NCBI GenBank assembly: GCA_022566725.1
Contig: JADFIM010000001.1
Coordinates: forward strand, 1-63,773
DNA length: 63,773 bases
Origin: Planctomycetota bacterium
Lineage (GTDB): Bacteria; Planctomycetota; Phycisphaerae; Phycisphaerales; SM1A02
Reading direction: 5' to 3'
Shown: positions 20,240 through 63,773 of the stretch, piece after piece
Numbering within the stretch: position 1 is the first letter of the stretch
How the letters are laid out: each line of letters starts with the position of its first letter
Program-made: the position numbers and the translations under genes
The notes under the pieces: model-generated
Database searches by the model: none
What the model saw: the letters and a program-made list of their open reading frames with translations, nothing else
Told to the model about the DNA's origin: nothing

Positions 20240-20611
20240 GAGAGGTCAGGCTTGAGGCTCCAAGGCACGAAGGCTTGAGGCGTGGCGTTGGGCGGCGCCT
20301 CTGGGCCGATTCATCGGCATGCTATCCGCCGAACTTGGGGGCGGCTCGGCGATGTGGAGGTGGGGCGACTGCCGACGAGCCGCCGGCGAGCTGCGGCCCG
20401 TGATGCCACGATGCCCCTTGTGCAAAAAACCCCGCCGCCAGAGTCTGGCACGCCCAGCCAACCCTGCCCGTGCGACGGGGACGATTCCCAGCACAGCCCG
20501 CACATGCTGCGGTTTGGGATGCTGTTCGCAGATGTTGGACAGATGGTTCCGCCCGGCGATGGGCGAGGCGACGGAAGCGCTGCCAGCGGCCTCGGAGTGT
20601 CGTGTGGCCAT

Positions 20612-20693
20612 GCGGGCGACAGGATTCGAACCTGCACGGGTTGCCCCACGGGAACCTAAATCCCGCGCGTCTGCCAGTTCCGCCACGCCCGCG
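20612..20693 (-). tRNA. tRNA-Leu, anticodon UAG
   Basis: Hand fold: acceptor GCGGGCG/CGCCCGC plus discriminator A; anticodon arm CGGGA-TTTAGGT-TCCCG; long variable arm; T arm GCAGG-TTCGAAT-CCTGT. No encoded CCA. Confidence 0.9.
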
Positions 20694-58183: not shown

Positions 58184-59357
58184 GGGTTCGCGGCCCCCGG
58201 CGACCGCCGTGCCATCCGCGCACGACCTCCGCCGCGGCTTCCGCCAGCAGCGTCGCCGGCTCAGCCAACGAGCGCTGCCGCCCGTACCGATCACTCAGGC
58301 TGACGATGCCGGCCAGCCATCCTCCCGTCGCCGTATCAACACACGCGTCAGCCCCCGGGCCGGTCTGGCCGACGATGGCGATGGTAGGCACCGACAGATC
58401 CCAGGCCGCCTTGGCCACGCCGATGGTCGCCTTGCCGTGAAGCGACTGGCTGTCCAGGCAGCCTTCGCCGGTGAGCACCAGGTCCGCCCGCTCACATCGA
58501 CGGGCAAACTCCACTGCGTCGAGCACCAGCTCGATGCCGGGCTCAAGCTGCGCCCCACATAATGCGACCAGTCCGAAACCGACACCGCCCGCGGCGCCGG
58601 CCCCGGGCATATTCGGATCGCCGCGGCACAACGAGGCCAGGTGGCTCAGGGCCGAGTCGAGCAGCCTGACCTGCTGAGGCGTCGCACCTTTCTGAGGTCC
58701 GTAGACCGCCGCTGCGCCTTTGGGCCCGCATAGCGGGTTGTTCACATCGCAGGCGACACGGATCCGAGGCAAGCCCAAAGGCGGCTCGTATCGGCTGACC
58801 TCATGAAGCGTGCCCCCGGTCAACGGCTGATCGAGGAGCATGCCCGATCGATCGAAGAACCGGCCGCCGAGGGCCTGGGCGATGCCCGCTCCGCCGTCCA
58901 CCGTCCCGCTTCCGCCGATACAGACCACGACGGTCTCACATCCACAGCTCGCGGCGGCGGCGATAAGTTCGCCGGTGCCGTAGGTTGTGGTACGAGTCGG
59001 ATCACGACGGTGCACCGGTATGAGGGCCAACCCGGAGGCCTCCGCGAGCTCGACGACAGCCGTCTTGCCCCCACCGGCAATGCCGAAGCGGCCCCGGACC
59101 GGCTCGCCAAGCGGCCCGGTGACGGTGGCATGGTGAATCGTCCCCTTCATCGCGCCGATCAGGATGTCGAGGCTGCCTTCGCCGCCATCGGCAAGGGGGC
59201 ACTGGTCGCAAACGATGGCGGGGTCCGCCTTGGCCACGCCGATGGCCATCGCCGCGGCCACTTCCTGAGCCGAGAGCGATTCTTTGAAGCTGTCCGGCGC
59301 ACAGAGCACTCTGCGCGGGCGGCTCCCGATCAATCTTGTACCTGATCCGTTGACCAC
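58176..59357 (-). CDS. glycerate kinase
   Basis: APDSFKESLSA N-terminal motif and glycerate kinase length/architecture. Confidence 0.85.
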   Translation of the reverse strand: MVNGSGTRLIGSRPRRVLCAPDSFKESLSAQEVAAAMAIGVAKADPAIVCDQCPLADGGEGSLDILIGAMKGTIHHATVTGPLGEPVRGRFGIAGGGKTAVVELAEASGLALIPVHRRDPTRTTTYGTGELIAAAASCGCETVVVCIGGSGTVDGGAGIAQALGGRFFDRSGMLLDQPLTGGTLHEVSRYEPPLGLPRIRVACDVNNPLCGPKGAAAVYGPQKGATPQQVRLLDSALSHLASLCRGDPNMPGAGAAGGVGFGLVALCGAQLEPGIELVLDAVEFARRCERADLVLTGEGCLDSQSLHGKATIGVAKAAWDLSVPTIAIVGQTGPGADACVDTATGGWLAGIVSLSDRYGRQRSLAEPATLLAEAAAEVVRGWHGGRRGPRTPI

Positions 59358-59450
59358 GGCGGCTCTCGGCTAACAGGCCCTCCCCCGGCTTGGGCCAACA
59401 CGGCGAGTGGCGTCAGAATACACTTACCCAAGCAGCGCCCCGGCGGTCAC

Positions 59451-60162: not shown

Positions 60163-60624
60163 CTATTCGTACTCTCGCAGGAAGCCGATGAACTCTCGGC
60201 GGTGCTCCTGCTCCTCGCCCATCAGTCCGGTCGCCAAGTCTTGCGTGACGTAGTCAACGCCGTCACACGCCTTGATGATCTTATCGTAGATGGCAATGAC
60301 CGCTTCTTCGGCCGCGATGACTCCCTTGATGACCGTCACCACGTCGGTCGAATCAGGCCCCGGCTGCTGCGCATCCTGCGTCCACTTGAGACTCTGTGAG
60401 CCGGGCACGGTCCCCTCCAGCGTACGGATCCGTGCAGCCAGCTTCTGGGCGTGACCGATCTCTTCGGTGACGTCGCCCTCCAGCGACTCCCTGATCTCCT
60501 GGGCCCGCACGCCATCAAGGTTGGCCGCGTTGGCGAGGAAGTTCATCACCGTCTCCAGCTCGGCGTTGTACGCTTCGATCAACAGCTCAATGATGCGGTC
60601 GTTCTTGGGATTCGCAGCCGGCAT
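60163..60624 (-). CDS. ferritin-like domain protein
   Basis: Four-helix-bundle E/H pattern (NAELETV...EEIGHAQKL...AEEAV...EEQEHRRE). Start at ATG 60624 after GGAAGGA. Confidence 0.7.
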   Translation of the reverse strand: MPAANPKNDRIIELLIEAYNAELETVMNFLANAANLDGVRAQEIRESLEGDVTEEIGHAQKLAARIRTLEGTVPGSQSLKWTQDAQQPGPDSTDVVTVIKGVIAAEEAVIAIYDKIIKACDGVDYVTQDLATGLMGEEQEHRREFIGFLREYE

Positions 60625-60732
60625 AACAGGTTCCTTCCTGGTTGAAATAATCCAACGGTCGGGATTGTAGCCAACAGGTCCCAGCGCCGTCGGCCGTATA
60701 CTCCGCAACGGTTCGGCCGCGACCACCCAACG

Positions 60733-61884
60733 ATGCGGAGGAGCTTCATGCGAGCCCTGGTGACCGGGCAGATCGGGATGAACAAGAAGCCGTACCTCGA
60801 CGCCGTGGCCGATCTGGCCGGGCGGCGTGGCGGCCGGATCGAGGTGTTTCATCTCGGCGACCTGATGTACGCCGAGGCCCCCGACATTCGCCCGGGGCGC
60901 ATTCTCGACCTGCCGCTCAGCCGGCTCACTGCGCTACGTCGGGCCGCGTTCAAGGACATCATTGCCAAGACCACACCGCCCCAAGACCACCCCGACATCA
61001 TCATCAACACCCACGCGACTTTCCGCTGGCGCCACGGACTGTTCGGCGGACTCGACTTCGACCAGGTGCGCATGTTGGCCCCCAACATGCTCATTTGCCT
61101 GGTGGACAATGTCGAGATGGTGCACCACCGGCTCCACGCCGAGCACGACATCGACGCCACGCTGAAGGATTGCATGGTCTGGCGCGAAGAAGAGATTCTG
61201 GCCACCGAGCTGCTCGCGCAGGCCGTCGGCTGTCAGAACCAGTTTTATGTTCTCAGCCGGGGCCGGCACCGCCCGACGACTGAGACCTGCCTCTGGCTGA
61301 TCACCCAGCCCGGCCTGCGCAAGGTCTATCCCAGCTTCCCCATGAGCCACGTCGTCGATATGCCGGCGGTGCTGGCGGAGATCGACCAGTTCCGCGCCCG
61401 CCTCGCCGAACACTTCATCACGTTCGATCCCGGTGATGTGGATGAGAAGTTATTGCTCGAGCGGGCCATCGAAGCGGCAAAGGACGGCCGGGATTGGGTC
61501 GAGGTGAAACCCAACAGCCTCGGCGGCCGGGCAACGACCGACCACTCGATCCGGGTCTCGGTGCGCGAAGTGCTGGACATCGCCGGCGACATTGACGGCC
61601 AGATCTATGCGCGCGACTTCAAGCTCATCGACCAATCAGACATGATCTGCTCCTACATCCCCGAACTGCCCGGGGGTATTCCGGGGGTCTCCAGCGGCGT
61701 GGAGCGCGAGCTTCAGCACGCCTTCGAGCACACCAAGGAAGTCTACGTCGTCTGGAAACCCACCAAGACGCCTTCGCCGTTCATCACCGAAACGGCGACG
61801 AAGATCTTTGGCAGCGTGGACGATGCGCTGGGGTATTTCGAGTCAAAAGGGATGCTTCCCCAGGGCGATCTGTTCGGGCGTTGA
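60733..61884 (+). CDS. conserved hypothetical two-domain protein
   Basis: Coding-like, with no antisense competitor. No confident family assignment from motifs alone. Confidence 0.55.
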   Translation: MRRSFMRALVTGQIGMNKKPYLDAVADLAGRRGGRIEVFHLGDLMYAEAPDIRPGRILDLPLSRLTALRRAAFKDIIAKTTPPQDHPDIIINTHATFRWRHGLFGGLDFDQVRMLAPNMLICLVDNVEMVHHRLHAEHDIDATLKDCMVWREEEILATELLAQAVGCQNQFYVLSRGRHRPTTETCLWLITQPGLRKVYPSFPMSHVVDMPAVLAEIDQFRARLAEHFITFDPGDVDEKLLLERAIEAAKDGRDWVEVKPNSLGGRATTDHSIRVSVREVLDIAGDIDGQIYARDFKLIDQSDMICSYIPELPGGIPGVSSGVERELQHAFEHTKEVYVVWKPTKTPSPFITETATKIFGSVDDALGYFESKGMLPQGDLFGR

Positions 61885-61983: not shown

Positions 61984-62487
61984 ATGCCGCGCTACAGGCT
62001 CACCGTCGCCTACGACGGAACCAACTTTCACGGCTGGCAGAAGCAGTGCGCCTCAGATGGGCCGGCGCAGGAGTCGCTGCGCACCGTGCAAGGCGTGCTT
62101 GAACAGGCCATCGTAGACGTGGTGCGCGAGCGGGTCAGCGTCCAGGGATCTTCGCGAACCGATGCGGGTGTCCACGCCGTAGGACAGGTCGCCGCCTTCA
62201 GCTGTCAGATGGAAATCGCGCCCGATCGCCTCGCCCCCGCCATCAACTCCCGCCTGCCTGACGACGCGCAGGTACGTAGTGCCAGCATCATTCACGAAGG
62301 CTTCAGCCCCATCAGCGACGCGATTTCGAAAGGTTACCGTTACCGCATCGCCCACGGTCGCAAGGGTCCGCCGCCAGCGGGCCTGCCGCCGCTGTTCAGC
62401 CGGCACACGACCTTCTGGACCCCCTACCGTCTCGATCCGCTTCGAATGAACGAAGCCGCGCGTCGTCTGGTCGGCGAGCACGATTTC
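61984..62487 (+). pseudogene. truA: tRNA pseudouridine(38-40) synthase TruA, 5' portion only (about 168 codons)
   Basis: MPRYRLTVAYDGTNFHGWQKQ, catalytic SSRTDAGVHA, and RYRI...LVGEHDF. The expected continuation (SF...MVR motifs) is absent in all frames. Not in the ORF track because the frame has no stop before the window end. Confidence 0.8.
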
Positions 62488-63773
62488 AATGCGACGGATG
62501 CCGAAGCAGGCTGGGCCGAGTTCTGCACGGCGAACTTCGAGAGCATAGGGGCACACGATTACGAAAATACCGTTCCATACTGGAACAGTGTTTCATCGAC
62601 CGGCATCCTCAGCCATGTCTGCATTGATCGCTATCATGGGGCGGCGGCTCACGAGAAGCTCTTCTTCGAAGAGTTCGTCCCAGAAGAGGTCAGTTTTAAC
62701 GTGGAGATTGCTGCTACACGGCTCACCAAAGAAGAAATCGCCCTGGTGTTGGCGATTCTGGAACAGGCGACATCGGACCCGACGCACCCCTGTCAATTCG
62801 GCGCCAACGGCGCCAATGGCTGGGGACGGATGGCGTGGGAACTCAATGAGGTAAAGCTACTTGAGGGTAGGCCCGTTCAGTTGTCTAGCGGTCAGGCCGG
62901 ATTTGACTGCTGCAGTCAAGTAGTCGAAATCGCTTCAGCATCGCTTGACGAGCTAATCGTTCCTGCTCACATTTTGGCAGACTTGAAGCTCGAGTGCTGT
63001 GGGCCGTTCCTGGTAAACGATACTTCGCACACGAAAGAAAAGGACGCAGAAGATTCAGACGCGCCCAATTTTATCCCGTTGTGCCGGGCAGCTGGCACTG
63101 TGTGGTTGGCCGCTTCGTCGTTCCGAGGCGCCTTGCGCGAGCGGGCCGAGTTTCTGCTCCGATCGCTGGATCCCCAGGCGACCGGCGATCCCAACAGGAG
63201 TCTGGGAGACGGCCCGATCGAGCGAATCTTCGGCAAGACCTCTCACGCGGCGCGACTCACGATTGCCGAACCGACGGAACTGGGCAGATGTGAAACTCCG
63301 AAACAGGACTTCGTCGCGATCGATCGTTTCACCGGCGGCGCGGCAGATGGGGCGAAATTCGCTGCCACTTACGCCGACCGCCCCCAGTTCCAGACGAAGC
63401 TGAGACTCGACTTGGACGGACTAGAACCGGAAGATACCGCTCTGCTGGGCTTGGCTCTGCGTGATGTCTGCCAGGGCAAGGTCCCCCTGGGTTGGGGCGG
63501 ATCCAAAGGCTACGGCGAAGTAAGCGGTAGCCTCACGAACTTGAGTTCTAAAGACGTTCCACAAGATTGGGAGGTTCCCGAATCCATGGCCACGGATACT
63601 CTGGATCATGCAGGGAAGAACTGGCTGTCTAACCGACTGAGGCTGCTCTTCGACGAGCAGAATGCACTTAATATTGACAGACTAGGGAACGACGTTTCCC
63701 AGGTGATGATCCAAGAAGGAACTCTGTCAGTTACTAAAACAAAGAAAGGCCTTGACTACAGCCTCTCCTACGT
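62488..63773 (+). CDS. multi-RAMP (tandem Cas7-like) protein fragment, type III CRISPR-Cas-like; 5' boundary undefined, 3' end outside window
   Basis: Same open frame as truA. Module 1: IDRYHG...KLFFEEFVPEEVSFNVEI (62623-) and G-rich loop FGANGANGWGR (62797-62829). Module 2: LKLECCGPFLV..., ASSFRGALR (63112-63138), IFGKTSHAARLTIAEP, AIDRFTGGAADGAKF (63316-63360) and G-rich loop LGWGGSKGYGEV (63487-63522). Hand-counted GC of 43-50% per 60 nt. Confidence 0.65.

Follow-up and report, generated by a model that had tools for sequence, protein, structure and literature searches.

A probable assembly or library chimera joins truA to a type III CRISPR RAMP gene in an open frame near the end of a Planctomycetota contig

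Microhomology-mediated illegitimate recombination in bacteria produces deletions, or the integration of foreign DNA, between short direct repeats. On a de Bruijn assembly graph, a chimera can form only where two sequences have an identical k-mer of about 21 nt or more. CRISPR-Cas islands in real genomes are often strain-specific and deviant in composition, and they often break contigs. All three bear on the window analysed here, a whole contig of 63,773 nt, in which ATG 61984 opens a single frame that ORF analysis follows uninterrupted to the last base (596 codons). The product consists of TruA residues 1-168 followed by a two-module RAMP (Cas7-like) protein minus its first ~95 residues.

Two described groups of proteins provide the comparison. 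The first is TruA, the tRNA pseudouridine 38-40 synthase, in which the Asp of the RTDAGVH motif is catalytic. Window residues 1-168 are 95-98% identical to intact conspecific Planctomycetota TruA and contain RTDAGVH; unlike TruA, the window ORF is without the C-terminal ~100 residues that make up the second domain. The second group includes Csx7 (TIGR02581), Cas7-2x (PDB 8s9t_D) and the N-terminal part of 9wxh_D, and here the alignment of the window tail to two-RAMP proteins, P0004 for example, spans 428 residues. In contrast to the two-module Cas7 subunits of atypical type III systems, the window has a first module lacking ~95 N-terminal residues and does not include the end of the gene.

The truA part and its intact relatives

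The truA part occupies positions 61984-62488 on the forward strand (codons 1-168) and ends in RRLVGEHDF. At the nucleotide level it is 94-99% identical to truA of five conspecific contigs (L001, L005, L006, L007 and L087), and SSRTDAGVHA is found at residues 56-65, the same as in conspecific TruA. The C-terminal domain is missing. The match to the full-length family model TIGR00071 covers only profile positions 5-149 of 228 and scores 100.2 bits, under the curated NCBIfam cut-off of 142.85; the intact relative P0108 covers positions 5-228 with 163.2 bits. The initial annotation had described two truncated partners in one continuous frame, and both parts of that description hold, the TruA profile match breaking off at position 149 and the frame staying open for all 596 codons.

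P0108 (270 aa) matches window residues 1-168 at 96% identity and has no relation to the window after F168, where BLASTP returns only noise, which rules out a divergent TruA beyond GEHDF. Past this point, normal TruA sequence follows in all seventeen TruA proteins that differ from window residues 1-168 by 3-10 mismatches. They continue with TSFTRKNHG (TTFTRKNHG in one, TSFTRKNYG in another), and the window is wholly different there. Alignment of homologues to a divergent TruA after GEHDF had been named as the result that would remove the break; these near-identical proteins differ instead, and the break is real. The truA 3' half (…TSFTRKNHGRES…), and with it the TruA domain expected after GEHDF, is absent from every frame of the window by blastn and tblastx, as is the gene that comes after truA in relatives. 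This agrees with the earlier statement that no frame encodes the C-terminal half.

Comparison with syntenic relatives, which the initial annotation had suggested, places the homology break between 62488 and 62489. Five independent conspecific contigs, at 94-99.1% nucleotide identity and with up to 10.5 kb of collinearity, lose their match at the same base, 62488, and carry an intact truA of 262-270 aa across the point where the window diverges. The end of TruA similarity had been put at GEHDF and position 62487; the motif stands and the coordinate is refined by one base. The five contigs are L001 from Logan (94.8% over 730 nt), the Planctomycetota MAGs L005 (94.2% over 8.0 kb and 93.5% over 526 nt), L006 (95.4% over 10.5 kb) and L007 (95.5% over 10.5 kb), and L087, a MEGAHIT-style contig from ENA (99.14% over 3384 nt, gapless). 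Past 62488 they continue with the truA 3' half and further common sequence, 91-96% identical to one another and missing from the window. The region beyond truA in L006 holds a 198-aa ORF and then a glycosyltransferase. Nothing in the window matches the 10 kb that follow truA in L005, L006 and L007, and this stretch is free of RAMP and other cas genes in all three. Exact look-ups found no contig encoding an identical copy of the upstream 383-aa or 378-aa protein, or of the fused protein.

The conspecific MAGs differ from one another by indels directly 3' of truA (L006 10505-13400 compared with L007 and L005). L007 is without ~230 nt in or after the region of the 198-aa ORF, and both L005 and L007 have ~1.8 kb extra further on. 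A strain-variable spot of this kind near truA could break or mis-extend contigs in assembly.

Upstream of truA the window carries housekeeping genes, encoding UDPGP, glycerate kinase, a VTT-domain protein, a ferritin-like protein and AAA_17. As called mechanically, a 229-aa ferritin-like ORF (60163-60852, reverse strand) overlaps the start of the AAA_17 gene (60733-61884, forward strand). The L087 calls for the two genes are 153 aa and 378 aa, making internal true starts in the window (M77 and M6) probable, with a short divergent intergenic region left between them. RNA-gene detection in the 64-kb contig gave a single tRNA-Leu gene (anticodon TAG; 20611-20692, reverse strand), with no CRISPR array and no other Rfam family.

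The RAMP tail and its relatives

The tail, positions 62489-63773 on the forward strand, is a fragment of a two-module RAMP (Cas7-2x-like) gene of type III CRISPR systems that begins at about residue 100 of a protein of 520-550 residues and runs off the contig. Its ORF extends for 428 codons with no decay. The remnant of the first module (62489-62850, forward strand) has IDR and the glycine-rich GANGANGWGR present in alignment A1 and by BLASTP against P0004. The second module (62971-63543, forward strand) is complete in alignment A1, with IDRFTGG from 63319 and the glycine-rich GWGGSKGYG; PF03787 matches residues 372-513 over profile positions 30-188 of 189 (E = 7.9e-17), with the invariant columns kept. 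Across the whole ORF, Pfam reports a single PseudoU_synth_1 domain (PF01416, residues 8-101), of which TruA has two, together with RAMP domains, whose best stretch is again 372-513.

The first module had been judged too short, with about 45 codons before its IDR motif. The count is exactly 45 (codons 169-213, ahead of I214 D215 R216 at nt 62623-62631). The motif lies near residue 178 in the full-length P0004 (548 aa), so that ~95 N-terminal residues are missing from the window module. P0004 is 45% identical to the tail over 446 aligned positions, with RAMP similarity beginning at AEAGWAEFCTA. Gone from the window is the RWxIxG…PLHxGSG…PGxxLKG…FG block, which is present in nine relatives retaining the region.

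A late start as a trait of the subfamily, as in P0002 and P0003, was considered and ruled out: the underlying contigs L003 and L004 contain frameshifts, and the N-terminal block lies in other frames. These contigs hold the two closest RAMP homologues, at L003 7200-9047 and L004 7200-9044 (ENA ERZ25039522, contig_25070 and contig_25067). Frameshifts split cas genes in both, and L004 misses a base in GGGA-ATTCGAATC, exactly at the RIFGERxI motif. The frameshifts look like uncorrected long-read assembly errors, and P0002 and P0003 (410-414 aa) are truncated gene calls.

In a search of 5.8 billion proteins the nearest relative of the RAMP part has 57% protein identity, and none of the many conspecific MAGs in NCBI contributed a closer match to it. 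A native RAMP gene with its own 5' end was found neither in that protein set nor in JGI metagenomes or IMG/VR, and a plasmid search gave only a 29% match, in Tistrella. NCBIfam gives weak matches of the tail to the Csx7 and gRAMP models. Among solved structures, the closest match is to the first 460 residues of 9wxh_D, a multi-RAMP protein of the TIGR03986 family (E = 2.5e-31), with Cas7-11 and the type III-Dv Cas7-2x further away.

The RAMP relatives are two-module Cas7-like proteins of 510-550 aa, encoded in operons alongside RT-Cas1, Cas2, a short Cas10-like protein and more RAMP proteins, including a TIGR03986 member. A complete operon of this family is found at L085 807-14174 (JGI 3300037465) and also in L086. 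It consists of an RT-Cas1 fusion (868 aa), Cas2, a 608-aa protein of unknown kind, a short Cas10-like protein (553 aa), a 636-aa weak-RAMP protein, the two-module RAMP (526 aa), a TIGR03986-family RAMP (599 aa) and an unknown 272-aa protein. Several of these components are without an NCBIfam match, and with its multi-Cas7 fusions the operon resembles an atypical type III system. The window itself contains no cas neighbours and no array-like repeats, the downstream side of the RAMP gene lying past the contig end.

Composition, microhomology and the open frame

The sequence composition changes at the join. GC content is 56.6% in the tail, compared with a contig mean of 63.2% (sd 1.9) and a minimum of 58.1% among the other 1285-nt windows. 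The tetranucleotide distance of the tail from the contig is 0.0326 (maximum of the other windows, 0.0274), and GC3 falls from 0.77 to 0.64 on entering the tail. Both scans thus make the tail the most extreme part of the contig, bearing out the GC drop of the initial annotation, whose five hand counts (39/60, 30/60, 29/60, 26/60 and 38/60) were reproduced exactly. The ~55-nt lag that it saw before the drop does not stand: it reflects only the GC-rich coding of the conserved motif AEAGWAEFCTA at the RAMP start. The GC-richest stretch of the last 8 kb is 58000-59400, where 200-nt windows reach 68-73% GC over the reverse-strand glycerate kinase gene; it is the opposite extreme to the RAMP tail and shows how far the host genome normally ranges.

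The break falls within the truncated RAMP gene, at a short stretch where truA and the RAMP family look alike. Over positions 62464-62488 (forward strand), truA CGTCTGGTCGGCGAGCACGATTTCA matches the homologous position of L003, CGGATTTTCGGCGAGCGGGACATCC, at 16 of 25 nt, including a 9-nt exact run, TCGGCGAGC, at 62471-62479. Only 0.016% of window positions match the L003 25-mer as well (p about 2e-4). The similarity is codon-aligned through a G-E-x-D shared by truA and the RAMP family: the nearest RAMP relatives read RIFGERDI-RITDAEAGWAEF and the window reads RLVGEHDF-NATDAEAGWAEF, corresponding to …GTC GGC GAG CAC GAT TTC A in truA and …TTC GGC GAG CGG GAC ATC in the RAMP relatives. Phe (TTY) is found in 10 of 10 aligned RAMP relatives at the codon that in truA is Val (GTC). 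Had the parent gene retained this Phe, no more than 18 nt (62471-62488) could be shared exactly. A search of the join for element ends gave neither target-site duplications nor terminal inverted repeats, and no integrase; the join is not flanked by significant direct or inverted repeats, and neither a tRNA nor an Rfam element lies nearby.

Because the similarity is codon-aligned, any join through this microhomology keeps the frame automatically, be it biological or artefactual. This explains the open frame, whose continuity therefore does not speak for a selected fusion. More generally, codon-aligned microhomology can give a perfectly open frame over a chimeric join, so an open frame by itself does not testify to a real fusion protein.

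This bears directly on a genuine TruA-RAMP protein, in which the RNA-binding N-terminal domain of TruA, with its catalytic Asp, would replace the first ~95 residues of a Cas7-like subunit as a selected new effector architecture. The unbroken 596 codons would fit such a protein, both partners are RNA-binding folds, and type III RAMP fusions to other domains exist. However, the frame is fully accounted for by the microhomology, and the cut in TruA goes through its fold (profile position 149 of 228). The RAMP module is likewise without the N-terminal block (RWxIxG…PLHxGSG…LKG) kept in every full-length relative. Among 117 matches to the RAMP query, PF01416 and PF03787 occur together only in the window's own protein, and 120 of the 120 matches listed for the TruA query carry PF01416 alone. 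The database copy of the fused protein (P0001, 597 aa, NCBI nr), encoded on a single contig of 63,773 nt, is the sole member of its own cluster. Moreover, up to 62488 the DNA matches a normal truA at 99% identity, making the event too recent for an adapted fusion. Taken together, we consider a selected fusion very improbable. A related scenario fares no better: part of a foreign type III CRISPR operon captured in truA in vivo through microhomology-mediated illegitimate recombination, with a TruA(1-168)-Cas7 hybrid made from the truA promoter and retaining some activity, is a reading to which we assign only the slightest chance. Were it true, it would amount to, for example, an RNA-binding TruA domain grafted on a Cas7 backbone. 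Meanwhile the 597-aa 'TruA-RAMP' entry in NCBI nr calls for caution; it could pass for a new CRISPR effector fusion and contaminate domain-architecture surveys.

Chimera or recombination as the source of the join

Judged from the assembled sequence rather than from reads, the truA-RAMP join is probably an assembly or library chimera. The contig would then be two unrelated DNAs joined together, with positions 1-62488 representing ordinary chromosome of a Planctomycetota species and positions 62489-63773 belonging to a two-module RAMP gene of type III CRISPR systems (its 3' four-fifths), whose source would be different, compositionally distinct and otherwise unsampled. They would have been joined at the short truA/RAMP look-alike stretch, the frame staying open by accident. 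The join was most likely made in sequencing or assembly, either by a de Bruijn path switch at a shared k-mer or by a template-switch chimera that extended the contig end. If it is an artefact, it would exist in no cell and the 597-aa database protein would be spurious.

Several observations favour this origin. A loss of synteny at a single base, after long collinearity with five relatives, coincides with a change of composition near a contig end: the join is only 1285 nt (~1.3 kb) from that end, where a random real event would be unlikely to fall, and nowhere in the contig does composition deviate more than in the tail. A housekeeping gene is destroyed, yet truA is intact in every conspecific, including the 99.1%-identical strain. 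The RAMP gene has no close relative in the protein search, conspecific MAGs included, and nothing cas-like is found within 10 kb of truA in three conspecifics. The significant microhomology at the join accounts for the open frame. The tail ORF is undecayed, as fits DNA of a working gene elsewhere, and the join bears no mobile-element signature.

Part of this evidence can also be read in another way. Since CRISPR-Cas islands in real genomes behave as described above, the contig-end position, the composition and the uniqueness of the RAMP gene are not exclusive to an artefact. A shared run of at most 18 nt, should the Phe codon have been kept, would be below what a graph chimera needs and more typical of joins made in vivo or by polymerase template switching.

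We give tentative consideration to a recent, strain-specific illegitimate recombination that would have killed both genes and left a dead truA-RAMP hybrid pseudogene. By one route, a microhomology-mediated deletion would have run from truA to a type III CRISPR island lying downstream in this strain alone. By another, a foreign DNA fragment would have integrated into truA at the TCGGCGAGC…GA.TTC microhomology. Either route would make the open frame of the hybrid a by-product of the codon-aligned microhomology, whose size (a 9-nt exact run, or up to ~18 nt if the Phe codon was kept) is typical of such events. Consistent with a real event, the contig is seamless at the join, with zero N-run and zero repeat; CRISPR-Cas loci are commonly acquired horizontally, AT-shifted and strain-variable; and relatives show indel variation 3' of truA. 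Against it, a strain so abundant that it gave a 64-kb contig would have lost a housekeeping gene of tRNA modification, and the truA 3' half is absent from that contig. The conspecific truA genes and their cas-free surroundings weigh on the same side, and we regard recombination as less likely than a chimera. If the join were real, it would be a clean natural case of microhomology-mediated capture or deletion destroying a housekeeping gene, which would be of modest interest.

On this circumstantial evidence an assembly or library chimera is favoured over real recombination. The initial annotation had left foreign DNA recombined into truA and an assembly chimera unranked, with a true fusion as the least likely of three options; the fusion keeps its last place, and the other two, which it did not separate, are now ordered with the chimera ahead.

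Set beside known systems, the locus shares features with both kinds of join. Like the products of microhomology-mediated illegitimate recombination, it has a short codon-aligned similarity, a hybrid ORF and no mobile-element ends; unlike them, it shows one junction, and a housekeeping gene would be lost. Compared with inter-genome chimeric contigs of metagenomes and MAGs, which typically arise near contig ends by a path switch at a short sequence in common, its shared run (9 nt certain, up to ~18 nt likely) is below usual k-mers. In its abrupt loss of synteny, its change of composition, the truncation of both genes, the short shared sequence at the join and the position near a contig end, the window is like those chimeric contigs.
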